From Cyanidioschyzon merolae (Eukaryota), in NCBI GenBank assembly GCA_000091205.1, contig AP006499.2: DNA of 64,000 nucleotides. One strand, given 5' to 3'. The notes beneath the pieces are model-generated. The model did no database searches. It had not been told where the DNA came from and saw only the letters and a list, made by a program, of their open reading frames with translations. This document shows, piece after piece, positions 1 to 61,530 of the stretch. Each line of letters opens with the position of its first letter. Position 1 is the first letter of the stretch. A program made the position numbers and the translations under genes.

Positions 1-69
1 ACTTGACCACAGACGCCTCCTAGAATTTTTGGACCGGCCACCTACTACTGGTTCCAACTTATTCTTGCA

Positions 70-2176
70 TCATTCCACCTTGAATGGTTCTCCCACAAAA
101 TTCTCTCTTGTCATCTCTGGAAGTCTTTTTTCCATCACCACACATTTCCTGATATTGATTGCGGCGTTAAAGTCTCGGTTCACAAACTCCATCCGTTTCT
201 TGCCATCATTGATTGTACTTACTAATGCAAGTCGCCCATGAACGTTCGCCCTCCTTTCCATTTGCTGTCCCGTCAGCGGTCCGTATTTTTCATATCCTCA
301 GGGCTCCGCTGGCACTTTTTTCATCTCGAATCTCTGAAGTGTGCATCCCAGTTCATGGTGTATATACAATGCTCGGAACTCATCGATCGGTAGCGGAACG
401 AAACGCCTTGCGCACTCCTTGTACGTTCTCGCCGGTGGAGCTGGTGTAGTCCCTTTTTGGGTCTTCCAGCGTCCTGCTCCGTTTGCCACTACGAGCCTCT
501 GACGTTCATCCTCCTTCAAGCCACTCAACTGATTGAAAAAGTTGGCAAACGCCCGCTGCTTCCCACAATACAGGTTCATTCGCAGACGAGCCCACCGAGG
601 CTTTGTATACTCTTTCCACAGCGCATCCCAATGAGCAACGCGACCTTCCATGAATTTCCGAAAAGCTTCAAAGTCCGCTCCTCGACTCGTCACCTTGCTC
701 AAGGCCTCCAGGTGCTCTTTCAGTTATGCGTTCCACGTCTCGATTTTATTCCTTGCATTCATGATTCTGGAATCTCGATAGTTTCTTGCTCTCGAGAACT
801 TTAAAATACTCATGCCTTTCTGAAGTAAGTTGCCGTGGATTCCATCTTCCGCACGCTTGGGTACTGCGGTGGTTATGATACTTGTGCCCCAGGGTCCGCG
901 CCAACGACAAGGTCGTTATCCTGCACTTTCTGCGTCGCAGAATCCGCCTCCTTCTCATCTTCATGCTTCGTTACGGGCGAGGCCGAGCATGGAACAAGAC
1001 GATCCGCCTTCAGGCGCCGACGGTGTACACACATGGATACCCCATCGGTTTCGATCACCCCAGCGAATACCTTTTGTTCGCTGACTTTCAAACGTTTGAT
1101 TTCGAAGATATTTTTCTGGTACTTCTCCCGGTTGACACCGGTGACCTCCTTCCTGCTAACCTTGAACTCCGGACAGATCTCCCTCATGATGCCATGAAGG
1201 ACTGCGGAATCGATGGTCACGAAATGTGCCCTGATGTTGCACAACGGAACCACGTTGAAGCGCTTCTCCATTAGGAACGCTTCCGTCTCTCAGACGCTTC
1301 ATTGTTCCCGCGATTCAGCTCCATCTCCGCCTTGGGTTCGAGCTCTCGGTCTGGGTGCACGAAATAGCGCATAATTAGGGGATATCATCATTTTTTCACC
1401 TTTTTTCATATCTGATACCTTTTCTGCTGGGTTGACCGGCCTCAAGGGTGCACGGTGCTCATGAATAGTCGCACGGATTATAGAATCCTCATTCGTGCAC
1501 CTGCGTGATGTCTTCTTGTCGACGAACTCGATCTCCTGTTCAAGCTGCCGATCGTCCGTCATCCCATTGGTGATGGCCCATCTTTCCTTCGCGAGAGAGA
1601 CCCGGTTGGAGTGCAAACACGGCGCATATCATGAAGCCCTGGAGGTTCATGGTTAAACGGTCTCCAAGTTCGTTAGGTACCGCATGGCCCCGTGGGTGTA
1701 AATATTCCAGTCCCTCTGAATCGAGTACCGTAGAAGCTGTAGAAGGGATGCTTTTCGTGGAGGGCATGCACCCGCTCATTTCCCCTCGAGGTTTCCCCTG
1801 TGGCGAGCACCAGGTGGCGAAGAAGGGTCCTGCTGAAAAATTCTTCCGGAACCTCGGCTGTTTCGATGTCGGCCACGTCTTCATTCATCTCCTTCACCAA
1901 ATGCATTAGCCCTGACGAAGCCTTTATAACACTCATGGAGTAAGACGCAACACGGTTTCTGGGAGTCTCTTGCAACGCTTCCTTGGACGGATGCTTGATA
2001 TGTTTAAGATGGCAGGCTTTGACAACCATCACGTCGTTGTGCCGTCTTTCTTGCAGCCTTTGACGTCGGGCCTCCTTCATTTGCTTCTTTGTCTCGTCCT
2101 GTTCCTCTTCGCACTGGACTGTGTGTTCGTTTGTATCCGCCAGCTGACGACACTGGGCCTCCAGGAGCCTCCACTT
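70..2176 (-). pseudogene. Fanzor1-like RuvC nuclease (TnpB homologue) ORF remnant of copy LA, about 690 codons in 5 frame-shifted pieces
   Basis: The putative ATG at 2176-2174 follows a 5' leader intron. An N-terminal K/R/E-rich (NLS-like) stretch precedes the ASSGLMHLV block, the RuvC-I D in GADPG, LVVANGAGRW at the expected RuvC-II position (no Glu), HHELGCTLQRFE, and NRDFNAAINI (RuvC-III). Confidence 0.55.
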
Positions 2177-2209
2177 TCACTCGCATAACTTTCCTTTTTA
2201 ATTTTTTTT

Positions 2210-2274
2210 CTGAAAAAGAACGCACCTTGAATGCTTCAGGTATAAACAGCGAAAAATCACTTGAATACACTTAC
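2210..2274 (-). other. Putative 65-nt spliceosomal intron in the 5' leader of LA (GTAAGT...TTTTTCAG)
   Basis: Minus-strand reading is CTCAAG|GTAAGTGT ... GCGTTCTTTTTCAG|AAAAAAAATT. An intron of identical length with a GTGAGC...AG boundary sits at the homologous position of L+ (61441-61505). Confidence 0.5.
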
Positions 2275-3119
2275 TTGAGGGTTGGAATACGATTGAACTG
2301 AAAAGCATACTTTGCTACGACTTCAATGCAAATACACCGCGTGCAGCAGAACAACACGCTCTTGATACCGATCGCGTTTCCGTTCAAGAGCAGCATGCGC
2401 GAAGTGTCTCGTGTAACTGGCTGATGTCTCTGGTGCACGTGTCCAGCCCCCTACAGAAAAAAAACAGAGACTCACGACTAACTGGCAACGATATGACAAT
2501 TTCTTTCCCCCCTCTAAGGTAAACGTTAAAAGGCGAAAAGGTTTCCATATTGTCGAAAGTTTATTTTATAGGCGAAACGTCCCGCGAGCCGGACGTGTCT
2601 GCCAGACCAGTGCTTCATGCGACCCCAGTGGAAGGTGCTTGCTGGAAACCCGAGCAACTCGTGCGAAATGCAGTTTATTATGAGACTAGGAGCGGGTATG
2701 CTGCGTCAGGGCGTCGGCCTGGTCGCAGTTATCTCCTTACATATCGCTTGGCGCTGCCGCAGGCACTAGGTCTGTCTGCAGAGCTTGCAGGCTCCCAGAA
2801 AGATTATGTACTCTGGCTCTGTATCGGGAAAAGCGCTCCTCGATTCGATGCCCTCTGTGGTACGGTAACGCGGTTTTGTCTCCGCGATCCATCTGTTCCA
2901 GCGGTTTAGGCGCCACTACGGGTGCTCGTGGTAGGTACTCGCGCACGCTAGAACGTAAAAACCGACCAGTATGTCCGAGATGAAGTGTAAGAGATGGATC
3001 TTAGTCGGCCGGGGCGGGAAGGGCAGCATGATGAGCGCTTCCTCGAAAGCCACTACCCATCCATCCCGAAATCTGGGATCCATGGTAAATGTAAACGTTT
3101 GTCATCGAAAAAAAACAGA

Positions 3120-4483
3120 TCGAAATTAATATGCAATTCACCGTTTAGATCGAAGACGAATTGTCTCTAGTATGTATATTCTTTATTGAAGAGTGCAATG
3201 AGGACTGCATGGTTCCTTCAGGTCAGTCATAGCAGGTCACTCAGGTGGTTGACGAACACTGAAAGAGACCAACAGATGCGCTACGCGCCGAAAACTGATA
3301 TTCTTCAGGCCTGCTTGCGGTCAATGATAGAAAATGGTCCGTTGATAATGCTACCGAAGAGCAAAAGCTATGATAATAGACGTCAAGTAGGTGTCTCTGT
3401 TTCTCACTAGTTTGTTCATGTGGTCCAGCATACAGGGGGATACAGTCGCAAGAAAGTCCTAGTTCACGAACGGTCATCTTCCAATGAAATCGCAACGACA
3501 GCGTTCCTGGAGCTCAGCGATCGGGACAGAGTACAGGAACGTCGGGTTGTTTCAGTTGATGAGATTTCCTTTCGACAAAACGGTCGGAGCATGTATAGGC
3601 ATTTGTGGGGAAAAGAGCCTGTTATATATACGATCGAACTCGAAAATAACTCGGACCTCATTATCTGTTCTAGCTGCAGTCGATTCACTCTCCGGCCTCA
3701 GTCCCGCTCGTAGAGAAGGCTCATCCAACAGCACCAACCATTCCGTCGAATCATTGAAGACTTTTCCCTCACGTCTCGCGACGTTTTTCCACTGAAAAAC
3801 GTGGTATTTCAGCATTACCGTCGCGGTCGAGTTTTTGCCGATTCTGTCGGGGTAGAGTTGGTTTTCATTTCTCCGTGAGCTCCGTGATTCGGTCCCATCG
3901 AAGGAGAGTTTTCGATCGAAAAAAGGTAATGATCTCTCCACTGGGCGAATTGATGAAGCGTCCAGCACACGATGACACCGCGGACAATGTCGTCTCTCTT
4001 CTGCAAGTCTTCCTCTTTCCGGGAAGGTCCTCATTTAGGCACATTCAAAAGTGCGCCCATTCGCAGAAAATGAGGGATGAACTGAGGTGTATATTTCAGA
4101 AGGTCGAGATTGAGAGAAGGCAGCGGAGCGCTTCGGTGATAGGAAAGCACAGAGGGCTGACAGAGCACCACATGACGCTGAGGGTGCGAATTCGAGGACT
4201 ACTTGCACTGGTGAGTTCAACCAGCAGCAAAAAACGCATGAAGTTCGTGAATGGTGAGTTTAACACTGAGAAAAATACAAGGAGATGTGCATTGTTGAAG
4301 ACGAGACGCGAGGAGCTGACGCGAGCGAACTTTATGGGGTAGCCTCTCGGGTTCGAGGTGTACAAGGAGAAGCTGAAGCCGATCGCAGGGTGCCGGCCAA
4401 ATACGGTTTGAAGGCGCCTGCCGTTGGGCGAATATACATACTCAAAAGTCGTGGAATGTTGTTCGTTATACTGGAAAGAATAC
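3120..4483 (+). mobile_element. Short TnpB/Fanzor2-like element copy S1 (degraded, about 1.36 kb)
   Basis: The 5' end (CGAAATTAATATGCAATTCACCGTTTAGATCGAAGACGAATTGTC) is shared with S3. The interior has RuvC-I-like VLAAVDSLSGLSP and the C-terminal sequence MRDELRCIFQKVEIERRQRS...RGLLALVSSTSSKKRMKFVNGEFNTEKNTRRCALLKTRREELTRANFMG (degenerate RuvC-III). The conserved 3' block at 4373-4460 includes CGGTTTGAAGGCGCCTG and GCGAATATACATAC, and the 3' end TACTGGAAAG matches S5. There are multiple frameshifts. Confidence 0.65.
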
Positions 4484-5755
4484 TCGTAGTCAAACCATGA
4501 GGGCTCACCAACGCATGGGTACTTTTAACAACATCAAGCGTTGTTTTGGGACGGCCTCTTCCACTCCTTGCCGCTGGATTTCGTTACCTCACCGCCACCA
4601 AGATGAGTCGTGACGCCCGCTACAAAGCGCTCCTAAAATAACCGATACCACTATGCAGCGCATTCATAAACCACTGCGCGCTTCTCCTTTTCTTACGAAC
4701 AGCACGCTCAAATACCCCATTCATCTGGCTCTCCGTCTAGCGGTTCCATGGCAGCTCGTGGGCGCACCAGATCGCGCCCCTATATCGCGACGACGAACAC
4801 CCGACGTCGGCCGTTCACGAGTGTTCTCAGACACTCATGCCGAAAGCCCAACGGGGTTCTCACGTCAAATACTCCTCTCCGCTCTCATCGCACGCCCCCC
4901 TCTCTTCGCGCCCGTCGACGAGCCGGCACTCAACAGCGACACCGTATGTCTCTCCAGCTGCAGGCTCGCTACGGCTCCCGCGTCTCCCGTTTCCATGGGA
5001 AAGGGGCCTTGGACGCGGGCGCGCGCCGTCGCAGCGGCCGCCTCCAGCAGAGTTTGCGTCACCGCTCTGCACAGCGGGAGCGTAGACGGATCGAACCAGC
5101 TGGGCTGGATATCTCCAGCGCGGATCTCCCTCTTGGTGCCCCGCCTCATCGTGGTCAGCATTGCGTTGCACGGATTCTCCCGCGGACTGGACAGCGTGCG
5201 CGTGCGCATGCGCCCGCCCAGAATACGCGCCGTGCGGATCGCCCCGAGCGAGCCCGGGGTCTGTCGGTACCGCACGAGACGCCGAGACGGAACGAGGGCG
5301 TCGAGGCGACCCTTCTGCATCCGCCAACGACATGTATCGGGCGACGAGGGAGGCCCTCGGTGGATGAGCTTTGTCGGACATGTTGTCACACCTTACCACA
5401 GCCGATCATGGCAGCTACGTTGTGCGTCTCGAGGCTGTACACAGCGAAGATGGCAATGGCAAGCAAAGCATATATCGTGACGACCGCCTCTGGATGAACT
5501 GTTTCAAGAACACCTGGTGGCAGCGAAATCGGGACTTGAACACTGCCATCAGCATCCTTCAACAGTCGACAACGGACTCCGAGGGAGCGGAGCGTCCAGC
5601 ACGCTGACTGGCGGACATAAGAAAGGAAAACGGAGCATTTGCAGAAAGAGTCTGCGAGGGCTGGTGTGCATGACAGTACGATGAAATCCAAACCTGTGCG
5701 AGTACGCCCGTGTCAGGATGCCTGTTCCATTTCATCCCGACATGCGTGAACGTAC
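4484..5755. repeat. Direct repeat R1 (1272 bp), about 99% identical to R2 at 10861-12156
   Basis: Near-identical ORF artefacts (4653-5497 vs 11030-11895) confirm the identity. R2 has a 21-bp insertion (about 11738-11758) and a 3-bp indel at the right end. R begins immediately after the S1 3' end. Confidence 0.85.
5386..5755 (-). repeat. C/H-rich coding-like module of repeat family E (copy a), embedded at the right end of R1
   Basis: Minus-strand translation HVGMKWNRHPDTGVLAQVWISSYCHAHQ...DGSVQVPISLPPGVLETVHPEAVVTIYALLAIAIFAVYSLETHNVAAMIGCGKV is homologous at aa level to 40480-40902 (+), 15170-15613 (+), 11784-12156 (-) and 60990-61165 (-). Confidence 0.6.
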
Positions 5756-6066
5756 ATGCACTGAACCCGTTACGTAGCGGCGACGTCGTATGAGTGATTG
5801 CCGTTTGCAATCACGCGCCGATCGCGAGACGGCCGCGCGTCACAGCATAGGGTGCCAGATTTCAGGGGCGTCTGCTGCGGAGCCGTATCCCACGGCCTGC
5901 CTGCAGGCTCGGACACGTCCCAGATTGGCAACTGATCCCGGACACGTGGTGCGATCTGGACGCGTTTCACATGGACAGCAGCTGGAGCGCTCGCGCGTCG
6001 ATGTGGAACACCCGGCGACAAGAGCCAGCCTGAAATTCACACCCGGCTTTAGAACTCGCTGTACTT

Positions 6067-7902
6067 ATGGTTGCGCTGGAACTTCCAGCAGCCATGTCTA
6101 AGGTGGAAGTGGTAGGTCTGGTGGAGTCCAACACGGGACGACAGGCAGTCCTTGTTTCCGGTGAGCAGGAAGCTGGGCAACCAGACAGGAACTGGTTTAC
6201 AAGTCAGACGGCCGCTGATCTTTGCACCCAGAGCAGGCCTCGTACTCGCCAGATGGGTCCGGTTTACTGTCCAATTCTTGGCAGAGAGCCCACCACCAAA
6301 AACCGGGCACGCTCAGATCAAAATTCGCTCTATGTTCGGGAAGCTTGCGAAGGGACCGTGTACGCTTCCAATCGCTACGAAACACGAACTTCTGAGCTCT
6401 CGCGGGAAGCGCCAAGAGACGAAGCTGGCGACGGTAGAGCGCAGGTTCAAACGACGCCCACGCTGATTTCCGCTGAAAAAAGACTCGAAGAAACCAACAG
6501 CCTTCCCTGTGTTCTCGAAGGTTCCTCTTCACACATGCCACGCGTTCTGAATAGCACCGTCGAAGTGCCGATATGCAAGTCACGGAATATCTCGGCGGCA
6601 GATGAGCAGCCTGAGGTTCTGCGTGAGCGGTCACTGGAGAAAAATGTGAAGCATTGGTCTTCTATTCATTTCCTTCTATCAGCTGCACTTCGTCCCCAGT
6701 ACTCGACAACCGTCAAGGAGGACGATTGCTCGAGACGAGCAAGGCGACGTGTTCATACTCGATCGCGTTCGGCAGGATATGGCGCTCTTCGCGTAGTCCC
6801 GGAGAAGTATCTGCTGGATCGAACGCATGCTTCGGTGCTGGGGGCTTCAAATCAGCGGGTTCTTCGATGGCTCGCACCACACACTGGGGAGAGCGGTGTC
6901 CAGTTATCATCATCATCATCATCAGCAGCAGCAGCAGCAGCGCCCCGGAGCGTTACTGGCACGGGAGCACTGGTATCCAGACCACGCGAGGGCGGATCCG
7001 AGCATGCGGCGCCCAAATGTTCGAGTACGTCATTCACTGCGCGAAAGCGTGGCCGCAACATCTCCTGCACGCTGAACAGCAACGTGAACAAATGCTCTTC
7101 CAGGGACACCGACTCAGACGGGTCGAGTGCAGTCACGGAGATGATCCCCGATACAGAGCACATCCTGATCCATCAGGCTGGCGTCAGTTCACTTGCGGTA
7201 GAGGTAGATGGTGAAATCGATCCATGGCTCATTATCGCCACGCTGCCGCCCCGAGAGTATGCGGCTCCCGCGCCTCAGATCCGCCTACCGAAGCCGGATC
7301 CCGCCGTGCGAGATCGCCCGACACTCGTTTTGGATCTGGATGAGACGCTTGTACACTGCTCGACAGAGTTTATGTCTGATGCTGACTTTAATTTCTCCGT
7401 GCACTTTGAAGGAACGAATTACACAGTATATGTGAAACGGAGACCTTTTTTACAGGCGCTGCTCCAGTACGCTGCTCGCTATTTTGAAGTGGTGGTCTTT
7501 ACCGCCTCGCAGAAAGCGTACGCAGATCGTCTTTTGAACATTTTAGATCCTGATCACACACTAATCCACCACCGGCTCTTTAGAGATGCGTGCATCAATG
7601 TTGCGGGTAACTATCTGAAAGATTTGACCGTGCTGAGTCGTGACCTGCGACGTACCATCATTGTGGATAACAGCCCCCAAGCTTTCGGCTATCATTTGGG
7701 GAACGGCGTTCCGATTCTAACCTGGACCGATGACGAAAATGACCGCGAATTGATCCAGCTGATTCATCTGTTAGAGGATATGCGCGACGAATTGGAACAC
7801 GGTAGCGGCGATGTTCGTTTTCTTGTCGAGCGGCGTTTCCGCAATAAGAATCGCGTTGAGTTCTACAGAGCGTTTCTTGCCTCCATTGATTCTGCACAAT
7901 GA
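6067..7902 (+). CDS. FCP1-homology (NIF/SCP1-like) phosphatase domain protein with a long low-complexity N-terminal region
   Basis: A 611-aa ORF begins at a true ATG. C-terminal HAD-type FCP1 domain: LVLDLDETLVHC (DxDxT), YVKRRPFLQALLQYAARYFEVVVFTASQKAYADRLLNILDP, and IIVDNSPQAFGYHLGNGVPI. Confidence 0.7.
   Translation: MVALELPAAMSKVEVVGLVESNTGRQAVLVSGEQEAGQPDRNWFTSQTAADLCTQSRPRTRQMGPVYCPILGREPTTKNRARSDQNSLYVREACEGTVYASNRYETRTSELSREAPRDEAGDGRAQVQTTPTLISAEKRLEETNSLPCVLEGSSSHMPRVLNSTVEVPICKSRNISAADEQPEVLRERSLEKNVKHWSSIHFLLSAALRPQYSTTVKEDDCSRRARRRVHTRSRSAGYGALRVVPEKYLLDRTHASVLGASNQRVLRWLAPHTGESGVQLSSSSSSAAAAAAPRSVTGTGALVSRPREGGSEHAAPKCSSTSFTARKRGRNISCTLNSNVNKCSSRDTDSDGSSAVTEMIPDTEHILIHQAGVSSLAVEVDGEIDPWLIIATLPPREYAAPAPQIRLPKPDPAVRDRPTLVLDLDETLVHCSTEFMSDADFNFSVHFEGTNYTVYVKRRPFLQALLQYAARYFEVVVFTASQKAYADRLLNILDPDHTLIHHRLFRDACINVAGNYLKDLTVLSRDLRRTIIVDNSPQAFGYHLGNGVPILTWTDDENDRELIQLIHLLEDMRDELEHGSGDVRFLVERRFRNKNRVEFYRAFLASIDSAQ
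6908..6940 (+). repeat. (CAT)5(CAG)6 trinucleotide microsatellite inside the phosphatase ORF, encoding poly-Ser/poly-Ala in frame
   Basis: Direct reading is catcatcatcatcatcagcagcagcagcagcag. The in-frame translation is SSSSSSAAAAAA. Confidence 0.9.
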
Positions 7903-9066
7903 CAACTTGCCACATGAGTATGGAGTATGTTTAGATGGGAAGCATGTTACCTGCCATTGACCACCAGGTTGCGCCTCTCCTGGCGAACAGAAACGATGAC
8001 AGCATTCCTCTGTGCAATGACGCGTCGCGAGATCGAGCGCTGTAATGCGGACCGCGACGCCCACGGAAGCGCCGAGATCATTGTCCGGTGAAACAATTTC
8101 AGTTCGGGCGCTTGGTACTGATCGTCGGGACAGCCGCTGCTCGCGACGAGATTGTATCGCCTGGTGCCCTTTGAGCCTTTGGAGAGCACACGATCGCCGC
8201 GAGTTTCCTACTCTGTACATATAAACGGCTTTTCCCGCTGTGCCAAGTTATACCAGACGCTCTGACGCACAGTTTCCTTTCGAATGAAGTTTTAGAGCTC
8301 TGGAGTTTTACTAGCTGCGAGCATCGAGTCCAGGGAGCGGCTTGGTCTATCAAGGAACGGGATTGCAAGTGATTCTCCTAAAGGAGTGCAGCTTAAACAC
8401 GTATGCATGGAGCCCAGTCCAAGACAGCCTTGGGCAAACTTTACTTTGTGAGAACCCACGAAAACTGTCGGTGATATGCAAGCTCTTATTCTGATGATCT
8501 AACGTTCCCAAGCGCAGATGCTCGCTTGCGAACTCCGTGAGGGAGACGCACCTAAGCTGCGCACACTGAGTACCTCCAAAGAGTTGGAACACTCTCAGGA
8601 TCGGGCTGGGCCGAGCGATATTCATCGAAATTTTCGATTCTCATGCATTTTCCCCATGAGCCTCCGAGTCGATAGGCGTCCGAAGCAGAAACCTTGTCCG
8701 TGCAAATCGATTTGCTGCGCTGAAGTTTCTGTCCGCTGCTGTCCGGCAAAGCTGGTACCGCATTCCGTATGAGTACGCAACGCAAGGCTCTGTTCGCGAA
8801 GCGAACGTCATTGGTCAGAGCGTGTCAACGAGTCCAGATCCGCTGCAAATTGCATGCTTGTCTGTATGCGTGGATGCGTGCGCGCATTAGTGCTTGTATG
8901 TCGATGGAAATCCGGGAGTCAGTCAATCAGTAAGTCAGTCAATCAGCATGCACAGCTGGCCGTCTGCTTGCGGGCATACCTATACGCATATTTACATACA
9001 TGTGTGCGTGCGAGCATGCATGTCTGTCTGCTTGCGGTCGATTGCAGCCTTTCATGCGCCAAAACA

Positions 9067-10368
9067 TCAAATCCAGTCTCCGTGACGAATCTTTTCGGGC
9101 AAATATACTTCGGTTAGGTACTGGAAGCCGAAATTGCTGAGAGCCTGAATCTCAGCCTTCTCTTTCCGCTTCACCATCAGGGAGAGCTCTCGATGCCAGG
9201 CTGGATTCTTTTTGATAAAATCTTCTTCCAGCATGTCTTTTCCGGTCTTAAGATCATTTTCTGTCATCGCAAGGCGGCACTGCTCCGGGATACCGTAGCG
9301 ATCAAGGTCGGTTGGCCGAATCCCCAACCACTTTATATCGGGCGTTGCTAGATTTGCAGAATCGTAGCTCATGCCCTTACTGCCACTCATGTAAACCGAA
9401 AGAATTTTCAGTCCGTACGGATCGCTGTCTACTAGACCAAGGATTGGTAAATGCAATTCCCGCTTCAGTCTTCGCAGAAACAAACGTGTTCCGACGTCCG
9501 GCTGACCTTTTGCAGTGACAATAATGCATTTCACGCGATTATAGAAGCGATCTTCCGCTAAGCGCATAAATGCTGCATCCTTCTCGACCAGGAGGATAAA
9601 TTCGGCGTCCGATGTTATATTCGTGATTCGATCGGTGTACGGAGGTATTGCTTTCCCGCCAACGCCCATACGCGTGCAGTCGATCAAATCCCCGTCTTCC
9701 TGGAAAGTTACACGGCCAACGACGATGCCTTTCTCTGACGCAACGACGTTTAGAGAGTTTCGAGTACAGCCGATCAGGCATGCAACATCGTTGAGCACAT
9801 CGTCTGACTCGGTTTGCTGCCGAAACAATTTCACATCTGTGTAGAACAAGTCGCGTTTTGTTGTGTGTATCCGTCGGGTGCAAAGCTCGTGCACAAGCTG
9901 TAGCACTCTCGTCATGATAGTGGTTTTGCGAACCGAGGCGACGGAGGCGAAGTTGCGAATCGCGACCCCGTCTTTGAGCACGATCCGTTCCAGCTCCTCG
10001 ACGTACTCTTGGTTGCCCGCGGATCTCCGTGGCACCTTGTAGGAGAGACCACGACCCTCCAGTATAGACTTTGCTGCGGAGAGAATGACTCGTTCGAGTT
10101 CGGCAAGTACCTGGTCGCAATCGAGCTCGCGCACCTCTATGCGTGCTGCGCTCGAGGCATCGGAACTCTGCTGCAAAATAAACCGTTGTTTTGCAGCCTC
10201 TCTGGACTCTATTTCCCTTTTCAACTCCCGGACTCTGTTCAGAAAAGACTCAGCGTCAACAGCCGCCGTTCCGCTAGAGACAGCACCCGATTCTGCCGCC
10301 TGTTTCCACTTCCGAGAGGCTGTGCTCAGCCGCGGCTCGGTCGCGGTTTTCTTTCTCTTCGCAACCAT
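9067..10368 (-). CDS. SPO11: Spo11 / DNA topoisomerase VI subunit A family protein (433 aa)
   Basis: True ATG at 10368-10366. The catalytic-Tyr motif is [12 protein letters not shown]. The Toprim domain has LLVEKDAAF (Glu) and [17 protein letters not shown] (DxD). The N-terminal about 110 aa is K/R-rich. Confidence 0.85.
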
Positions 10369-10860
10369 AAGATGAGGTGCTCGGGCCCCAGTCCGTCCAA
10401 AAAGCTTTCAAGCAGGAACGTATGCAGCACAAGCGGTACGACGAAGCAGCCTGCCTTTCGATCTTGAGCGCTGATGCGTACCGTTCGGCGAAAACTCGCG
10501 CCCGCCACGGGATCGGCAGAGGCGCAGTGTGCACCGAACACTCGCGTTCGCGCCAAGCTTGCATGCGGCGTGCGGATGTCAGCGCATCGCCTTCTGAGGC
10601 GAAGTACGACACGCGTATTCGGTTCTCTTCAGCACCTGGACCGGTTTCAGCGCCGCGGATCAAACGCAATCAGGATCGAAAGTCACAGAAAAGGCCTCGA
10701 GGGCCCGTATGGACCATGAAATGTCCGAACCTAAGGCACGATAACTGACGTGAACGCCAGAGCCCGACACAGCAGGAAGAAAAAATCCAGCTTTGAGCTA
10801 CTCCTTCTGATCCTGCATTTCCATTTTTCTCGAAATGTTTTAGATGAGCAGTGCCGAGGT

Positions 10861-12156
10861 TCGTAGTCAAACCATGTGGGCTCACCAACGCATGGGTACT
10901 TTTAACAACATCAAGCGTTGTTTTGGGACGGCCTCTTCCACTCCTTGCCGCTGGATTTCGTTACCTCACCGCCACCAAGATGAGTCGTGACGCCCGCTAC
11001 AAAGCGCTCCTAAAATAACCGATACCACTATGCAGCGCATTCATAAACCACTGCGCGCTTCTCCTTTTCTTACGAACAGCACGCTCAAATACCCCATTCA
11101 TCTGGCTCTCCGTCTAGCGGTTCCATGGCAGCTCGTGGGCGCACCAGATCGCGCCCCTATATCGCGACGACGAACACCCGACGTCGGCCGTTCACGAGTG
11201 TTCTCAGACACTCATGCCGAAAGCCCAACGGGGTTCTCACGTCAAATACTCCTCTCCGCTCTCATCGCACGCCCCCCTCTCTTCGCGCCCGTCGACGAGC
11301 CGGCACTCAACAGCGACACCGTATGTCTCTCCAGCTGCAGGCTCGCTACGGCTCCCGCGTCTCCCGTTTCCATGGGAAAGGGGCCTTGGACGCGGGCGCG
11401 CGCCGTCGCAGCGGCCGCCTCCAGCAGAGTTTGCGTCACCGCTCTGCACAGCGGGAGCGTAGACGGATCGAACCAGCTGGGCTGGATATCTCCAGCGCGG
11501 ATCTCCCTCTTGGTGCCCCGCCTCATCGTGGTCAGCATTGCGTTGCACGGATTCTCCCGCGGACTGGACAGCGTGCGCGTGCGCATGCGCCCGCCCAGAA
11601 TACGCGCCGTGCGGATCGCCCCGAGCGAGCCCGGGGTCTGTCGGTACCGCACGAGACGCCGAGACGGAACGAGGGCGTCGAGGCGACCCTTCTGCATCCG
11701 CCAACGACATGTATCGGGCGACGAGGGAGGCCCTCACGCGCCATGGAGCGGCCCTCGGTGGAGGAGCTTTGTCGGACATGTTGTCACACCTTACCACAGC
11801 CGATCATGGCAGCTACGTTGTGCGTCTCGAGGCTGTACACAGCGAAGATGGCAATGGCAAGCAAAGCATATATCGTGACGACCGCCTCTGGATGAAATGT
11901 TTCAAGAACACCTGGTGGCAGCGAAATCGGGACTTGAACACTGCCATCAGCATCCTTCAACAGTCGACAACGGACTCCGAGGGAGCGGAGCGTCCAGCAC
12001 GCTGACTGGCGGACATAAGAAAGGAAAACGGAGCATTTGCAGAAAGAGTCTGCGAGGGCTGGTGTGCATGACAGTACGATGAAATCCAAACCTGTGCGAG
12101 TACGCCCGTGTCAGGATGCCTGTTCCATTTCATCCCGACATGCGTGTTGAACGCAG
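10861..12156. repeat. Direct repeat R2 (1296 bp), partner of R1
   Basis: See R1. The E-family module lies at 11784-12156 (-). Confidence 0.85.
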
Positions 12157-13024
12157 CAGCAGATTCGTGCCCCATGTGCAGCGCATGATGGAGCCCTCGC
12201 CTCGTGCTCTATAGCGCCCAGCATAACTACCTTCGAAAAACGGCCGTAACCCGTAAAGAAAGCGAAGATTCCTGGGATCTGCACATAATAACGAGCGGCG
12301 ACAACAAGGATTCAAGGAAAATCGGGCCAATGGCTCGCTCTTGTGTACAGGAGACGCGCAAATCTGTCTGGATTTTATGCAAAGCGCAGAATACATGGAT
12401 GTCGTGCACAGGAGACGGATAACTTTCTGTAGCTTTGACGCAAAGCGCAGCATAACTGGATCCTGGGCAATAATAACGCACAATTGAGTTTTTCTCAATA
12501 CGCTCACGCTGAAAGCAAGGACACAGAGGAAAACACAAGACCTTACTCCAGGACGCGTCCCCCGCCAAAAAAATACGGCCTCGCCAGTCACCGGGCTCTT
12601 TTTCAGCGGTTCGCCAGCCCAGTTTCGCCTTGGCGCTCCCCGCAGAGCAGTATCGGAGCTACAATCCCCAGCGACATCGCTAGCACGTGTCCCGGCGCTG
12701 GGATGCGAATCCCGCCAATTGGCGGCTGCACCGAGTCGTGTGCTGATCGCGCAGCGTGATGCACTCAGCGCCGCCGTCGTCGCCGGCGCCGGCGCCGGCG
12801 CCGCCGCATAAGGGCAACCGGACAATCCGCCAGCCACGACACGGCAGCGGCCGGACGTCGGGTGCCGCCAAAGCCTTAGAACGTACACCGTTTCTGCTCG
12901 CGTAACTGAAGGGCCTGGACGCCACGCTCAAAGGGTGTGCGTTGTCGATCTCGTGCTTCTTTCCATAATACGGACGAAACGTTGAAAAACAAAGTTTTTG
13001 TAGTTGAGTGGAGACCCCGAAAAC

Positions 13025-13534
13025 ATGATCGTGTGGAAAGACGTTTTCACTAAAGACGAACTGCTCTCTGATGGAATGAAAAACGTTCGGGAGCTGGAGA
13101 ACGGCCTTCTCCTGGCTTGCGATTCGTACAATGTGACGCTAGGCGGAGGCGACTATGGAATCGCGAACAACGACGAAGAAGCTATGGGGGCAGGCGGCGA
13201 CACTGCGGGCGCAGAGTCGGTGAACGTGGTGGTGGACGCTTTCAAGTTGCAGAACATTCAGCTGCCACGGAAGGATTTTCAGGTGTACATCAAGAAGTAT
13301 TCAAAACGGTTGAAGGAATACCTTGAGAACGAGAATCCATCTAGAGTGGCGGCGTTCATGGAAGGAATGAAGGAATGGGTACCGAAGATGCTCAAGGAGT
13401 TCGACGAGTACGAGTTTTATATGGGCCCTTCCTGCGATCCCGACGCATTACTGGTTCTCGCGAAATACGAAGGCGAAAGTCACTACCCGACTTTTCTGTA
13501 TCTCAAGGATGGGCTTGCTGAAGAGAAGTTTTAG
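13025..13534 (+). CDS. TCTP: Translationally controlled tumour protein (TCTP) homologue
   Basis: ATG at 13025. MIVWKDVFTKDELLSDG...FQVYIKKYSKRLKEYLENENPSRVAAFMEGMKEWVPKMLKEFDEYEFYMGPSCDPDALLVLAKYEGESHYPTFLYLKDGLAEEKF aligns along the full length of TCTP. Confidence 0.85.
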   Translation: MIVWKDVFTKDELLSDGMKNVRELENGLLLACDSYNVTLGGGDYGIANNDEEAMGAGGDTAGAESVNVVVDAFKLQNIQLPRKDFQVYIKKYSKRLKEYLENENPSRVAAFMEGMKEWVPKMLKEFDEYEFYMGPSCDPDALLVLAKYEGESHYPTFLYLKDGLAEEKF

Positions 13535-13629
13535 AACAGAACAGAAACACTCATTTCAGTTTAATCTGCAGGTTAAATACGACCAATGGATACCTGGGGA
13601 TTTAAGACCGCTCGTGACCAACAGTGCGG

Positions 13630-14622
13630 TCATGCGAGGTTGCCTTCGGGCTCTGGCTCTTGTTCACGATGCTCGGCAAACTCATGAGGATCAAATTCTG
13701 GCGGGGGCGATGCACCCCCGGCAACAGAGTGATCAACGCTATCCGAGAGGGGGCTCGCATCCGCCGAAAACCGTGACGGCGTCTTTGACGTCGGGCTCTG
13801 CATACGCTGACTTGTGCGCTCACCCGAGGTGTTCACCTGAGAGCTTTCAGTCCAATCAATCTTTTGACTGGTGAGGCTTCCATGTTCAGTCATAATATCT
13901 TGCAGTTCTCTGTCTTGTTCAATAAGCGGCTCGAATTTCAATGCTGCCAGTTGGTTAGAGATATAAACAATGAGGGCCCTTGAGAACACAACATCCTTGT
14001 TGCGTTCGAGCATTTCAACACCAAGCTGGAGAGAGTTGCAGGCGTCCTCTGCAGACTGTCTGGATTCAAGGAGTTTCAGACGGTTGCGTTCCAAACGCGC
14101 GTCCGAATCCTGCTTTTGCGCTGCTTCGAGCTTCTCGACTTTGGTTAAATAATAGTTGACCTCTCTCAGGCGCTCCTCATACACGTGTGCTCGTTTTCTC
14201 ATCTCTTTGCACTTTTCGAGGAACTCGTCAACTTGCGCTAAGACGCTCTGGACCCCCTCCGGTGTCGGTTTACTCTCGTTCTGGCGGTAACCCGTTGGCG
14301 GTGGGCGAAGAAGACCAATCTTACACATGTGTTGTTCCAGTGCCGAGACAACGTTCGCAGTATCTGTTGCGGTGCTGTAAAATGGGTGCGTAGCTTCGAA
14401 CATAGTCTGTATTGAGCCGGTGGCATCACTCATGTTCGCCAGCAGGCTCTTCCAGGCGTTCTCGTTCGCAGCTAGCACGGCTCGTACTCGTTGGGCCCGA
14501 CGCTCCAGGCTGTCCAGTACGTCCATCGCAGCCTCGTACCGAGTTTCGGGCGCACTCGCCGGCCCCCTGCGAAGTACAGCGTCTTTCGAGCTCTTTAAGC
14601 TTAACTTAACGCGGTGAAGCAT
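13630..14622 (-). CDS. Hypothetical coiled-coil protein (330 aa), possibly BAR-domain-like
   Basis: True ATG at 14622-14620. Long heptad-like helices (LREVNYYLTKVEKLEAAQKQDSDARLERNRLKLLESRQSAEDACNSLQLGVEMLERNKD) and an acidic C-terminus. No confident family assignment from sequence alone. Confidence 0.4.
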   Translation of the reverse strand: MLHRVKLSLKSSKDAVLRRGPASAPETRYEAAMDVLDSLERRAQRVRAVLAANENAWKSLLANMSDATGSIQTMFEATHPFYSTATDTANVVSALEQHMCKIGLLRPPPTGYRQNESKPTPEGVQSVLAQVDEFLEKCKEMRKRAHVYEERLREVNYYLTKVEKLEAAQKQDSDARLERNRLKLLESRQSAEDACNSLQLGVEMLERNKDVVFSRALIVYISNQLAALKFEPLIEQDRELQDIMTEHGSLTSQKIDWTESSQVNTSGERTSQRMQSPTSKTPSRFSADASPLSDSVDHSVAGGASPPPEFDPHEFAEHREQEPEPEGNLA

Positions 14623-15138
14623 GGTTGCGGTCGCTGAGAGGCAGAAGCTTATAATAGCGATGGTTCATTTGCGCCGATCATGAATACATCACGTACAAGT
14701 GCCGTTTTGTCCAGTATTCCCTGGATCATTCCCGAAGGCTGTAACGCAGGACACGTGGCTGCACCGCGGCATCTCGTTCCGGAACGTGCGTAGACGGACG
14801 CCGCGGCCCCTGGGTGTCCGATCATCCGGTGGCGTTCGGCGATGCACCGATGCTGCGGAAACCACGAGTTGATCAGCGAGCGGCTCGAATGCCGAGGTGC
14901 CTCGTCAACGCGCGACGCCAACATCCCCCAAAATACGATATTTCGCGATCGCGACCTGTGGAAACGCCGTTCATGCAGGGGGTTGTCGGCGATGCCGCGC
15001 CAGGCGCAGGCGCACGTGTGGCGCTGCTCAACCAGCCCGAGTCTTTGCGTAGCCAAGGCAAAACATGAAACATGAAAATCACGTTGGGGGCGCTCGACCC
15101 TGAGTCTGGATTTCTGAGCAGCGGATGATACCAGGGCG

Positions 15139-16640
15139 TGCGCCACTACATCCATGTCAGAATAAAATTGAAGAGGTCCACTTAGCCGACATGGGTGCAA
15201 ACATCAGAATCATTTCAGAGTAAAACAGAATAGGTTCATCGCGCAAGCTTGGATCCGCACTCGCTATGGTTACGGCTCTTCCTAATGGCATCAACGCGTG
15301 CCTTTAGAGGCTTTTTCTATGACAGCTTCCCTTTACGCTCTTGTATCTCGGGCTCTATACAGGCCGACCTCCGCTTTCCGTCGAGCTCTGTTGCCAGCAG
15401 TCGGAGGATATTTATGGCAACATATTCGTTTGGATTCCGCCGTTTCCGGCTGCAGCAGACGCATTTCACGCACAGAGTGAAGATGAGATCTACGTTTCTC
15501 TTGCCATTTTCATACTCTTTGCACAAGGCCTCGATACGGTATTCGTAACCTTCAGAATTGCCACTGTTAACGTGTTTCAGTGTGTCCAACACAACTTCTC
15601 CTTCGAGGGCTAGCCTATGACGTATGAACGCTTACTTCATCGCTCGGTGCATGCCCTTGACAGGTACATAAGGTTCACCGCCCCGCTCCGATGTTCTCCT
15701 CGGTTTTCGCGCCCGGTACAGTTCCTTACGATCGCGGACCTCTTGTGAGCGATTCTCGCGGTGAGGGCACTGCACGCTGCTCGTGCAAGCCCAAACTGTT
15801 GTGTTTCAAACATGGATTGTGGAACACGATATTGTCCATGATCAAACAAGTATCGAAAGGAAAATTTAGGCTGGAGGGGAATTCGAGCTGTGTCGGTCCC
15901 TCTACGCTCGCTTCGTGCACAGCGGTGACGCATTCTCTAGTCAAAGCAATCACTGGAATGACTCAAGTCCGAGTCCAAGACGATTCTTCGTGTAAGAAGA
16001 ACAGACGGCAGCCGATGGGAGCGTATTCCTTGGTAGGTATCATGCTGCTGCCGTCGAATAGTGTTTCGTCGATGGACACCAAGAGCGGAGGGTTTGTCTT
16101 TCGAACGAAGTCCAGGATTTGATGTGAAAGGTTCGAAAAACAAGTGGCATGAGCTTTTTAACGACTGGTCAAGGGAGGCTGCCGCGTTTTTTCCTTCCTC
16201 AATCTAGCTACCCGAATTGATACCCCCACGAGTCGCGTTGAAAAGTGACCATCGAAACCTTGAAGAATGCGTTATTTGAGGACGTTACGCATATGGAAAT
16301 GAGCCGACTGGAGGGATGGACGTATGAATCGGATCATGACATCGGAATTTTACGAATACATTGTCGATGGGATCGCGAATCATTTCGATTCACGTGGCGG
16401 AACGAACTCAAGCGACAGAGAGTTTGAGGAGCCACTCCAAAATGACCGCCGAAAGTCCTGAAACTTCGAATGAATCCTCAAGTCCTTGCTGCCGCACTTC
16501 GAATGTCGAGGCTGTACTTCAGAAAACCATTCGAAAGAATCGAAATTATCTGAAGAGAGCGAGAAGCTGAGTGTTGCAATCAATTCTGAAACAGGTTTAG
16601 GAATCTTCTCTTCGGTGCTGCGAACGAATATTCCTTATCT
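15139..16640 (+). repeat. Unclassified repeat family E, copy c (C/H-rich module plus downstream conserved segments)
   Basis: Homologous to 40450-41885 at the nt and aa level. The module at 15170-15613 and LWNTILSMIKQVSKGKF...VRVQD at 15691-16122 match KDLWNSMLSMVEQMLEGKF...VRVQE at 41064-41324. The motif TGCTGCCGCACTTCGAATGTCGAGGCTGTAC is shared. Confidence 0.55.
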
Positions 16641-18152
16641 GGAGCCTGTTGTGACGAGCGACTTTCCAGCATCCAAGAATGACGCTTGTCTGTTGGTGTC
16701 GCTGCAATAAATCTAGCTTTATGTTCATTCATCCTAGTTCACGAAGAAACATATAATTGAATTGAGGATCCTTTCCGATCAATGGGCCACAAGTTATCTT
16801 CGTGATGAATCTTTCTTCTAGAGGCCTCTGGCAAGATTCACCTGGAGACTCGGATATTTTGAACGGGAACGTCTCGCAATGACCATCTCAATTGCCACCA
16901 CTCAACTGCCCAACTCTTGCTCCGCGCCACGCTTTGGTGCCAGGACAGAATCCACGGCCCCCCGGGGCATACCATCAGATACTACCTATTCGACAACGCT
17001 TTCGTTGGGTAGGCTCGATGGATTAAAGCTGATGTTTTCGAGTGCGCGGAGCATGGCGGTTCGTAGGGCACAATCCTCATCTCAGCTGTGGATACAGCTA
17101 GCACCGCTTATACCATATATTTACGTGTACAATGTTCACCTCCGGAACAGCAGCATGATCGTTCCAGCGATACCTCGAGCGACGCATCTTCAGGGAGCAT
17201 TGCTTATGGCACTTGACGCGCCTCCGGGGTCACGCTGCACAGACAGGACGAATTTGCGATGTTTTTGCGGCAGTCAGCTCGAGACTTGCAATCATTTTTT
17301 GAATGATAGAGAGGAACTTCACCGTGAAATAGCGAGCTCGAGCTTACGACTATCCATCGCGTTGAAAGCCGATAGACATCTGATGTGCGAGCTCGTGCAC
17401 TAGATTCGCTGAAGGCAATTTTTTCCAGGAAACAATCATGTATCCAACCAGGATTGCTCTCGTGTGCGATGAGTTCATGCGACAGGGAAATGGATATCAC
17501 ACCGATCAGCGCACCTGAATTTTCCAAGAGCCTCAGAGGATTCTTCCCGTCGAAGCTGGCTGGTTGATGTCTCCACCGATATGAGTTTACCACCGGATGC
17601 CGGGCCTACCGAGGACACGCACTGAGATTCTGCATTTTCGGTAGCGACCCTCCCACAAAATGACCGGTTTCTTTTCGTGGCCATGTGGGCTCGCTACGGT
17701 GCAGAACGTTCTCGCTGAGCCTCAATCGCGAAGCAAGCATTGGTGCCTTGCTGGAGACGCGGTGCGCGCTCTGGGCGTCCACCTCAAACATTCGGAGCCA
17801 GACCTCTGCCAATTCATCATCGTCGCTACTCTGGAAAGTGCTCGAGCGATGCGCGACATGCGTGTGCTCCGAGCGCTCACGAAAGCTCGCGCGCTGAAAC
17901 GCAAACCTTTGCTCCTCTGGCCTGAAAGCCGGTTCTGAATACAGTCTCTACTGCATAGCGCTTGTAGCGGAGCCTCGACGGAGCTGTAAGAAAGGGCCCG
18001 CATTGTCGTTCCAGTCAAGGAGAGCATCATCTGCACAGAGACACAAGTTCAGCGCATAGTACGAGACATGCTCGAGGCAACTGCAACAGCGACAGCACAG
18101 CGGTGCTCCGCACGTGGACATGCAGCACACAAGGCCTTACAATACGCATATT

Positions 18153-19274
18153 TTAGAGCAGCCTGCCAATGAGGCGGCTGAGGAGTAGTCTGAGCTGAAT
18201 TCCGGGAGTCATAGGAAGCTGCAAACGGCGATCGAATGCGTCATAGCCCGAAGCACGTAATTTGCGCAGATAGTCCGCCGCCAAAACAGCTGGTAGAAAC
18301 GCTAATCGACACGAGCGGGGAATCCGCTTCCAGGTCTCTTTGTCTGAGCGAGCGCGCTCCAAATATTCTTCTGCCACAAGTGCAATCGACTGGAAGGCAC
18401 CCCGCCGATCCACGGAGGACTGGACCTGGAGGTTCACCAACTCCTTCGCGGAAATCTTCCAAGCTTCCATGACATCACGAGGCACATATGTCTGCAAGCG
18501 AGCTGCGTGATATGGTGCGCCTCGCAGAAGCGTTGCAAGACCCGCCGCCGTACCTACGTCCATAGCGACTCGATCCAGCAGCTGAGCTGTTTCGCGTTTG
18601 GGCGGCTCGCCGTTGGCCCCGACAGCATGCAAGATTCTCGCGTGCAGCGCAATACACGACCCGTGCGAAGCCTGGGTGTATTCTACCAGATCTTGGATTG
18701 TATGCGGCTGCGGATACTTTAGATCCTGCTCCCTTGCTGCAAATAGTGCTTCAAAAGGCTCTACAGGGAGCGCGAAACGTTGAATCGTTTCGCATAGAGC
18801 ACGCAGCGTCGGACTGGAGATCGAGGTACGAACACCAGTCTCCGCACTGCTTCCATCGTATATTCCGTGCACGGCATTGCGGAAGAAAGATAGACGGAGT
18901 CTTCCCATGTCCTCGTTAGAAACAGAGTCTTTGATTCGAGCGAGCTGCAGGTTGAACGCGAAGAGCGCCGCATGCGCACAACGTGCTCTCTGCTCCGCAT
19001 GAAGTACGTTGATCAAATAGGCTCCATACTCCATCTGTCGCAACTGTTGCAAGCAGTACTCATAATCTTGGCGTTGCGCCTCCAAAACTGTGGGAAACTT
19101 AGGCTCCCAACTCGTCGGGAAGGTATGAACGCTCATGCGGCCCGCGGTGAACGCGTGTGTTTCGGTGGTGCTTCCAGTCCGACAGCCCGTTTCTCCCTTT
19201 TCTAGACTTGATGGCTGCCTCGCCTCAAAGTCTTGAAGGTTCCGGTAACCTCCAGGCGTTCGCCATTGGTCCAT
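18153..19274 (-). CDS. NDUFAF6: NDUFAF6-like protein (squalene/phytoene synthase family; complex I assembly factor homologue)
   Basis: YCLQQLRQMEYGAYLINVLHAEQRARCAHAALFAFNLQLARIKDSVSNEDMGRLRLSFFRNAVHGIY matches the NDUFAF6 pattern. The ORF track starts at TTG 19331. The first ATG in frame is at 19274 (MDQWRTP...). Confidence 0.6.
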   Translation of the reverse strand: MDQWRTPGGYRNLQDFEARQPSSLEKGETGCRTGSTTETHAFTAGRMSVHTFPTSWEPKFPTVLEAQRQDYEYCLQQLRQMEYGAYLINVLHAEQRARCAHAALFAFNLQLARIKDSVSNEDMGRLRLSFFRNAVHGIYDGSSAETGVRTSISSPTLRALCETIQRFALPVEPFEALFAAREQDLKYPQPHTIQDLVEYTQASHGSCIALHARILHAVGANGEPPKRETAQLLDRVAMDVGTAAGLATLLRGAPYHAARLQTYVPRDVMEAWKISAKELVNLQVQSSVDRRGAFQSIALVAEEYLERARSDKETWKRIPRSCRLAFLPAVLAADYLRKLRASGYDAFDRRLQLPMTPGIQLRLLLSRLIGRLL

Positions 19275-19461
19275 GGAACCATTCTTTACGGGAACTTGCA
19301 AGGCTTTCGGCACCCCGCAGCTAGCACACAAGTGCAGGGACAGGCACTTAAGGCGCCGGAGGCGTGCGCGCGCGGCACTGCAGAGCGTTTCGGGGGAGCA
19401 GTCTCCGGCGCTCAGCAGCGAGACGGTGGGTCACCTGTAGAAAGCGTCGCCGATCTCAAGG

Positions 19462-19561
19462 ATGCCGAAGAACAAGGGCAAAGGAGGCAAAAACAGGAGA
19501 AGAGGGAAGAGCGATAATGACTCGATCAAGCGTGAGATAGTTTTCAAGGAGGACGGGCAAG
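19462..19561 (+). CDS. EIF1A: eIF1A exon 1 ([33 protein letters not shown] + 1 nt)
   Basis: ATG at 19462. The exon ends CAAG|GTAAGT. The phase-1 junction joins exon 2 to give ...[15 protein letters not shown], the canonical eIF1A N-terminus. Confidence 0.8.
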
Positions 19562-19818
19562 GTAAGTGACTGCGATGTAACCTGCTAGGGCAGTGTCGAG
19601 CACAGCTGCACGCTCGGTGTGGAATCAGCTCTGCGTGATGAAACTTTCGAGTCTCGAATCCTGAATGGCGAACCAACGTCTCTGAAGAATACTGAACCGA
19701 ATTCCTCGTTTCTGATTGGGCACTGTCTGAGCTTTGCGTGTCTGCGCACCGTAGACAGCGCTGCGTGCACTAGTTCCACGAACAACAACTAACCGTTTCG
19801 TTTTCGTATCGGTGACAG
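19562..19818 (+). other. eIF1A intron (257 nt, GTAAGT...ACAG)
   Basis: The donor is GTAAGTGA at 19562 and the acceptor is ggtgacAG at 19817-19818. The reading frame is restored across the junction. Confidence 0.8.
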
Positions 19819-20189
19819 AATATGGACAAGTTTTGCGCATGCTTGGCAACGGCCGGTGCGAAATCCACTGCTTCGATGGACAGAAGAGGCTTGGACATAT
19901 TAGAGGAAAGATGCGGAAGAAAGTGTGGGTAAATGCGGGCGATATCGTTCTGGTCGGTTTGCGGGATTTCCAAGACGACAAATGCGATATCATTCTCAAG
20001 TATTCTGCTGATGAGTCTCGTGCGCTCCAGCGCAAGGGCGAACTTCCGGATAACATTGTTCTGAATGAAGCAACGGATACTGGGGATGGAGCTGAAGTCG
20101 AGTTTGAGGTCGACTTTGACGAAGAGGAAGAGGTTGCGAAGCAGCCAGCACGCGGGGCCATGCCTGAACTCGACATCGATGACATTTAA
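19819..20189 (+). CDS. EIF1A: eIF1A exon 2 (S1-like OB domain and acidic tail, stop TAA)
   Basis: [62 protein letters not shown]...DFDEEEE...DIDDI. Confidence 0.85.
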
Positions 20190-21184: not shown

Positions 21185-21340
21185 ATGCCTTCTCATAAAA
21201 CTTTCAAGATAAAGATCAAGCTCGCGAAGAAGGCGAAGCAGAATCGTCCGGTTCCTGTATGGTTTCGGTACAAAAAGGACACAAAGATCAGGTACAACAA
21301 CAAAAGAAGGCACTGGCGGCGAACGAAGCTGAACTTTTGA
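21185..21340 (+). CDS. RPL39: 60S ribosomal protein eL39 (51 aa)
   Basis: [51 protein letters not shown] embedded in the longer artefactual ORF 20867-21340. The ATG is at 21185. Confidence 0.85.
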
Positions 21341-21643
21341 AGCGCAGTACTTGCGAGCAACGCCGTGTACGTCGTCGTGTTTACCGGCGGCTCTGGTAGC
21401 TCAATGTTTCCGAGGAACGCATCGCAAGCTACTGAACGGCAACGGTGCGCTGCTTGAAGGCGATGCGAAGTGTAAACCCGGGTCGGGGAAATAGATCTTT
21501 GGAGCTATCGAAACCAGAGCGCTGGTTGCCCGTGCACCTGAGCAAGTAAAGTTCAATAAGATACCGTGAATACCTTTGATGCAGCTTCTTACGATTAGCA
21601 AGGTTTTAGGCGCTGCAGAGTGACCAGTGTGTTGCGACTAGCG

Positions 21644-61505: not shown

Positions 61506-61530
61506 GAAATGAATAATCCAAGGTGAAGCT

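Follow-up and report, generated by a model that had tools for sequence, protein, structure and literature searches.

The stretch analysed here (the window) comprises 64,000 nucleotides of contig AP006499.2 (assembly GCA_000091205.1) from the red alga Cyanidioschyzon merolae 10D; its genes are without introns and its GC content is about 52%. Two host genes, one for a NIF/CTD-small-phosphatase-like protein and one for Spo11/topoisomerase VI-A, lie here between R1 and R2, two near-identical copies of a repeat termed R (Table 1). R1 and R2 form one direct pair, 5.1 kb apart, and their near-identity is probably best explained by ongoing non-allelic gene conversion between two old repeat copies. An earlier interpretation made from the letters alone (the sequence-only reading) had already described near-identical direct repeats flanking both genes and had named the latter Spo11/TopoVI-A and FCP1/NIF-like; self-BLAST and repeat finding in the first case, and Pfam in the second (NIF domain; TP6A_N and Toprim domains), agreed with it.

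Table 1. Features of the R1/R2 locus and metagenome contigs with recombinant-type junctions. Positions refer to the 64 kb window. HMM, hidden Markov model.
Feature	Position	Strand	Basis and remarks
R1, 1265 bp copy of the R repeat	4484-5748	+	Self-BLAST, repeat finding, MAFFT; 5'-truncated relative to the family, abuts S1
R2, 1286 bp tract 99.7% identical to R1	10861-12146	+	Self-BLAST, repeat finding, MAFFT
5' continuation of the R family, R2 only (78 bp)	10783-10860	+	Family HMM; no R1 counterpart
GC-rich core of R (62-74% GC)	11030-11878 (R1 equivalent 4653-5480)	+	Few stop codons on the + strand; orphan open frames of 282 and 256 aa
21 bp segment in R2 and all wild copies, deleted in R1 of 10D	11729-11749 (approximate)	+	Bounded by the 7 bp direct repeat GGCCCTC
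R16k, diverged R-family copy, ~56% identical to R1/R2	15212-16462	-	nhmmer E=4e-80, alignment
R41k, diverged R-family copy, ~54% identical	40507-41761	-	nhmmer, alignment
R60k, diverged R-family copy, ~57% identical	60080-61322	+	nhmmer, alignment
NIF/CTD-small-phosphatase-like gene (BAM82022)	6067-7902	+	Pfam PF03031, E=1.5e-53; exact protein match
Spo11/topoisomerase VI-A gene (BAM82023)	9067-10368	-	Pfam PF21180 and PF04406 (TP6A_N, Toprim); exact protein match
Block with TCTP and 330-aa gene	13022-14776		Inverted relative to Cyanidiococcus; bracketed by R2 (+) and R16k (-)
S1, S-family member, 3' end resembling the 3' end of T	3112-4471	+	Ends 11-17 bp before R1
L018, deletion-type junction contig			11.6 kb; ENA ERZ27249350
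L025, deletion-type junction contig			51 kb; JGI 3300005861
L030, deletion-type junction contig			JGI 3300025503
L031, deletion-type junction contig			JGI 3300050380
L003, circle/tandem-type junction contig			Own ends overlap by 131 bp

In a MAFFT alignment that included the flanks, the identity between R1 and R2 begins at TCGTAGTC and stops at ...GACATGCGTG. The copies differ by three single-nucleotide polymorphisms (SNPs; R2 positions 17, 903 and 1037) and by one 21 bp indel. Since the 21 bp are kept in every wild R copy, at both positions, and align to other family members, the indel is, as judged from these alignments, a microhomology deletion in R1 of strain 10D and not a gain in R2. The sequence-only reading had listed a few SNPs, a 21 bp duplication-like insertion in R2 and a separate 3 bp indel. 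Its SNPs and the 21 bp length difference exist, but the insertion turns into a loss from R1, and the five BLAST gap opens behind a second indel reflect alignment ambiguity around the single 21 bp one. Nor is the arrangement an assembly artefact, a doubt raised at the same time, because independent metagenome contigs anchored in unique flanks (L002, L014, L028 and L029) have the same junctions.

With R2 as the query, nhmmer returned three further full-length relatives in the window (R16k, R41k and R60k), with E values of 1e-70 to 1e-87. The copies outside the R1/R2 pair show 54-60% pairwise identity to R and among themselves. With at least five copies in 64 kb and homology over the whole length with discrete ends, R is, on alignment evidence, a dispersed repeat family, old and non-coding, with a length of about 1.3-1.4 kb. 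What had been taken for an E-family module embedded in reverse orientation at the right end of R is the visible part of this whole-length homology to the three other elements. The search for other R copies, suggested together with that description, gave these three diverged ones; self-BLAST and repeat finding gave no further near-identical copy within the window. It had also been considered that R might be a common dispersed repeat, with a merely coincidental flanking arrangement. R is indeed a dispersed family, but its other copies are no more than 54-60% identical; coincidence between two random insertions therefore does not account for R1 and R2 being 99.7% identical.

The ends of the pair were placed with an HMM built from the three diverged copies and their extended flanks. 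R2 aligns from 10783 (HMM position 73) and R1 over 4482-5759 only, from HMM position 150; in a local alignment test of the left flanks against the family, P was 0.006 for R2 and 0.63 for R1. On the 3' side, the HMM alignments of R1 and R2 stop no more than about 15 bp apart, where the family itself ends. By these alignments R2 is the more complete family member, and R1 lacks at least 78 bp of the family 5' end, being cut at the S1 junction. Because the HMM start is asymmetric and the 3' ends coincide, the identity tract corresponds to the homology shared by both copies, as expected for conversion: its left end is the truncation point of R1 at S1 and its right end is the family 3' end, to within about 15 bp.

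No terminal inverted repeats, target-site duplications, hairpins or poly(A) were found in R. A search of the whole window against Rfam gave no match at the gathering threshold, R2 by itself gave no credible one even at E<=1, no tRNA gene was detected, and a Pfam scan of all long open reading frames (ORFs) returned no match for those of R, and so no transposase or reverse-transcriptase ORF. Compared by eye, the ends of R do not fit those of Helitrons (5' TC, 3' CTRR, insertion at an AT dinucleotide). A subtelomeric location was rejected (no telomere repeat in the window), as was a link to the Fanzor-type T and S repeats described below, to which R has no nhmmer or tblastx similarity. In a metagenome scan for near-identical R elsewhere, a 28-mer from R was seen only in contigs of this locus; the collection is poor in Cyanidioschyzon contigs and the evidence is accordingly weak.

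The distribution of alleles between the two positions was assessed in 12 wild R sequences, taken from metagenome contigs that match the window at 99.1-99.8% identity. Two alleles, 265A and 1104T, are private to 10D: the finished 10D sequence has them in R1 as well as in R2, and all 12 wild R sequences lack them. Of the wild contigs, L002 carries 719T at the R1 position, whereas L014, L028 and L029 carry it at the R2 position; 719G is found at both positions in other strains. Sites 333/365 and 1256 likewise segregate for the same alleles at both positions among the wild haplotypes. This combination of 10D-private alleles in both copies and polymorphisms shared across positions requires that variants have passed from one copy to the other. 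The outer junctions are the same in all lineages, including one that has diverged from 10D by 0.46% in the flank, and from this we infer that the R1/R2 pair predates the split of the sampled lineages. The sequence-only reading had left recent duplication and ongoing gene conversion side by side; the derived alleles shared between R1 and R2 favour the second.

As we picture the process, R1 and R2, in direct orientation and 5.1 kb apart, would repeatedly be repaired from one another, within the chromosome or between sister chromatids. Such exchange would hold all of the shared homology at about 99.7% while the other family copies drifted to 54-60%, and a GC bias of the conversion would push the core of R to 62-74% GC. 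On the branch leading to R1/R2, 99 AT-to-GC changes were counted against 23 GC-to-AT changes, the other three copies together having 112 against 177 (Fisher P=1.6e-15). Most of this excess falls within R positions 100-1000, a section of 62-74% GC, and overall GC is 0.60 in R1/R2 versus 0.46-0.50 in the other copies. We read the AT-to-GC excess as a probable footprint of GC-biased gene conversion, which would imply a long history of exchange.

Several points weigh against conversion as the explanation. The divergence between R1 and R2 in 10D, 0.24%, is not significantly below the divergence between strains (0.23-0.46%): three differences in 1265 bp compare with about 5.8 expected from the deepest strain split, a difference that is not significant. 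For this reason the case for conversion rests on the pattern of allele sharing and not on divergence. For the wild R sequences the source is short-read metagenome assembly, which can collapse two copies to one consensus, and their haplotypes per position are less certain than those of 10D. R16k, inverted and 3 kb from R2, has not been homogenized. As to the GC bias, the outer 100-290 bp of R do not show it, though these edges are near-identical too; neighbouring intergenic DNA is also 56-61% GC; and the bias could stem from allelic GC-biased conversion, or from a promoter-type composition at the R2 site before later copying.

R1/R2 is best filed as a case of non-allelic gene conversion, a known process, in a sparsely studied genome. 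Long terminal repeats (LTRs) of human endogenous retroviruses (PMC4921805) and the palindrome arms of Y chromosomes (PMC8600007) behave alike in that paralogues stay near-identical while relatives diverge, lineage-specific alleles appear in both copies, polymorphisms are shared between paralogues, identity ends with the shared homology and a GC-biased substitution footprint is left. Unlike them, R1 and R2 are old non-coding interspersed repeats that stand in direct orientation around two single-copy genes in a compact 16.5 Mb algal genome, and conversion is read here from a sequence pattern and not from direct observation. A literature search gave no description of concerted evolution with a GC-biased-conversion-like footprint in C. 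merolae.

The strongest rival, which we consider unlikely, is a recent one-off copying in which a duplicate or retro-copy of part of R2 (family position 150 to the 3' end) arose beside S1 shortly before the lineages diverged; the identity would then mostly reflect youth, with little later conversion. The 78 bp of the family that R2 holds and R1 lacks make R2 to R1 the sole possible direction of such an event. Target-primed retro-copying leaves copies of this kind, complete at the 3' end and cut short at the 5' end, and non-LTR retrotransposons are present in C. merolae (PMC1955436). The divergence between R1 and R2 is also about equal to that between strains, and the restriction of the R 28-mer to contigs of this locus, in the one metagenome collection, points the same way. 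Against this, the 10D-private alleles in both copies and the shared polymorphisms need exchange after the copies had formed. R carries no poly(A) tail, target-site duplication or terminal repeat; the source copy would already have been about 43% diverged from its relatives; and the centre-weighted AT-to-GC bias is not explained by copying alone.

One property of the core is not accounted for by conversion. On its + strand, the R1/R2 core contains four stop trinucleotides over all three frames, against 15-16 expected from local dinucleotide shuffles (0/2000 as low) and 25-29 in the other R-family copies; its - strand, with 22 against 25 expected, is not depleted. TGA occurs once on the + strand and TCA 16 times, and the substitution spectrum is strand-symmetric. 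Biased conversion cannot produce a depletion of stops on the + strand, because it is itself strand-symmetric. Selection for open frames, another strand-specific constraint or chance are possible causes.

That R1 and R2 carry a young protein-coding or translated + strand gene, so that selection on this gene and not conversion alone shapes the sequence, is nevertheless improbable. Besides the one-sided depletion of stops, the 21 bp indel is in frame and the ORF is intact in all known haplotypes. The depletion, however, affects all three frames and not one, and codon periodicity is lacking among the substitutions of the R1/R2 branch (37/33/33 by codon position). Mismatches within the R family are likewise spread evenly over codon positions, frame-wise BLOSUM scores give no R frame better amino-acid conservation than the others, and GC is flat across codon positions, unlike in the real genes of the window. 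A consensus ORF search of the family gave no coding signal. The long ORFs of R1/R2 carry no annotation at NCBI (exact look-up, NCBI and IMG), a search of 5.8 billion protein clusters gave no homologue outside this locus, and the predicted protein is rich in Arg, Ala, Ser and Pro, as from random GC-rich DNA. On these counts the earlier statement that R has no coding potential holds.

The gene order in Cyanidiococcus yangmingshanensis is SQS, TCTP, a 328-aa gene, Spo11 and NIF. At the syntenic Cyanidiococcus loci (21 kb) no R-family sequence was matched at E<=1e-3, an absence that at such divergence is indistinguishable from decay. The comparison with related species called for by the sequence-only reading recovers the gene pair, in favour of its being ancestral, and no match to R. 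Because the same pair is syntenic there and no R-family match accompanies it, Spo11 and NIF were not brought in by an element; they are, on this comparison, ancestral neighbours, neither captured nor imported.

The weakest rival, in which a composite mobile unit or LTR-like element, with R1 and R2 at its two ends, captured Spo11 and NIF and moves or excises as one piece, is very improbable and already largely refuted by this synteny, since Spo11 and NIF adjoin the TCTP block in Cyanidiococcus with no R-family match. The locus does resemble an LTR retrotransposon or solo-LTR pair in having direct repeats of about 1.3 kb around an interior of about 5 kb (5.1 kb here), and contig L003 runs from the Spo11 side through R to the NIF side with overlapping ends, as a circle would; however, a de Bruijn assembler yields such a cycle from any repeat-flanked segment. 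The LTR-like architecture proposed earlier fails on the hallmarks as well. The ends of R read TCGTAG...GCGTG and not TG..CA, the flanks are without target-site duplication, the 5' boundaries of R1 and R2 are unequal and what lies between them is ancestral host DNA. For C. merolae no LTR elements were reported in the genome paper. The same proposal was right that the interior holds host-type genes and no gag/pol: only NIF and Spo11 were found.

A crossover between R1 and R2 would leave S1, R and the TCTP side joined on the chromosome, together with a circle or tandem copy in which the Spo11 side, R and the NIF side are joined. Loss of both genes by such recombination had been predicted in the sequence-only reading, and pop-out between direct repeats has been demonstrated experimentally in C. 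merolae 10D, in engineered marker recycling (PMC13353863). The engineered case is alike in that two direct repeats flank a cassette and the crossover leaves one repeat, as in contigs L018, L025, L030 and L031; it is unlike in that its repeats were introduced by engineering and selection was applied for cassette loss, the event at R1/R2 being read from contigs.

The flanks of contigs L018, L025 and L030 (corresponding to window positions 12147-21878) have one haplotype in common, set apart by 20 private SNPs in 8.2 kb, and the R of these contigs carries 1037A, found elsewhere only in R2 of 10D. Compared with the Italian strain 10D, this haplotype lies further from the other wild ones, and it may represent a separate Cyanidioschyzon lineage. 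Interior contigs of the same samples are short; they reach 33-108 bp into R and stop at 9906 (L021, L022) or 8214 (L024), and L023, which shares their interior haplotype, ends at 9853. A low-abundance interior beside a dominant deletion allele would fit these lengths.

Doubts about a real deletion come from three sides. The same samples contain the interior, exact protein look-ups having placed three of the deletion-type contigs in samples that also yielded short interior contigs, and both a mixed population and an assembler artefact fit this; L031 lies on a different haplotype background; and a de Bruijn assembler can output any of the four traversals of a collapsed repeat. Crossovers between R1 and R2 in nature, giving the deletion and a circle or tandem, are thus suggested by metagenome contigs that are possibly assembler artefacts. 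We regard it as a tentative possibility, and a rather doubtful one, that R1 x R2 recombination is active in the wild; that the diverged lineage, seen in at least three hot-spring metagenomes, has popped out Spo11 and NIF and lacks this Spo11; that the reciprocal circle or tandem exists; and that the stop-free + strand core is newly translated.

Two partial Spo11 contigs from other samples, L032 and L033, have chimeric-looking ends, with back-jumps from 9807 to 10300 and from 9762 to 10039. The ends of L021-L023 at 9853-9906 lie near these jumps (9762-10300), a recurrence within the same 150 bp. The jumps and the ends are probably those of chimeric or low-coverage contigs.

C. merolae serves as the 'simplest' photosynthetic eukaryote, with a genome said to be almost repeat-free, and its sexual cycle was described only in 2026. 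On the reading favoured here, in which R1 and R2 undergo gene conversion, old interspersed repeats would still shape this genome, R1 and R2 evolving in concert and R2 and R16k bracketing an inversion relative to the sister genus. A natural deletion polymorphism of a Spo11 homologue possibly accompanies the conversion. Should the deletion-type contigs prove real, this homologue would be present in some wild lineages and absent from others, with a bearing on whether hot-spring populations reproduce sexually or clonally. For engineers of 10D, the locus is a natural 1.27 kb direct-repeat cassette that is expected to pop out.

Compared with C. yangmingshanensis, the block of TCTP and the 330-aa gene is inverted relative to its flanking genes. 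R2, taken with its 5' continuation (10783-12146, +), and R16k (15212-16462, -) point their 3' ends at the block. The arrangement fits an old inversion by recombination between R2 and R16k.

Two further repeats occupy the window. The T element, of 2.3 kb, is present at 1-2305 (-) and 61412-63781 (+), the two copies being inverted, near the window ends and 75-81% identical. The copy at 61412-63781 has broken ORFs of 167, 120, 187 and 203 aa and ends in ...NRDFNAAINI, a TnpB/Fanzor-type C-terminal motif; the T ORFs have no match among Pfam and PDB sequences, and 254 related protein clusters occur in hot-spring metagenomes. An interspersed element of about 3.2 kb with 253 copies and a WSV486-like truncated ORF has been described in C. 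merolae (PMC1955436) and corresponds to the Fanzor1-bearing CMe-1A and to TE-N2_CMe (PMC3627910). T is probably this abundant WSV486-like element, i.e. Fanzor1-bearing CMe-1A, an assignment made from the ...RD.NAA.NI motif, the copy number and the literature, with the elements compared by description.

The S family, of about 1.4 kb, has four copies (3112-4471, 30224-31583, 38391-39771 and, on the - strand, 23075-24516) that are 71-74% identical, with fragments at 51478-51783 and at both window ends. The last 350 bp or so of S match the 3' end of T, and S appears to be a derivative with an internal deletion, retaining the T end where a Fanzor guide RNA would be expected. R resembles the interspersed elements of C. 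merolae (PMC1955436, PMC3627910) in being old, dispersed, largely intergenic and without terminal inverted repeats or target-site duplications, and it adjoins such elements (S1 to the left of R1, T' to the right of R60k). It differs from them in having no detectable similarity to T or S and no Fanzor-like ORF, and in being more diverged (54-60% pairwise, versus 71-81% for S and T). By a rough sum of coordinates, T, S and R together fill about a quarter of the window, versus the approximately 5.7% reported genome-wide.

Upstream of the NIF gene and just outside R1, a 57 bp stretch (5927-5983) is 89% identical to Cyanidiococcus (L011, 14202-14258) within otherwise unalignable intergenic DNA, and is a candidate conserved regulatory or 5' untranslated-region element. 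Inside the gene, many metagenome contigs break at 6914-6917 (about 6914-6922), and variants of the NIF protein of 611, 612 and 634 aa were seen, which points to a stretch of variable length in its N-terminal half.

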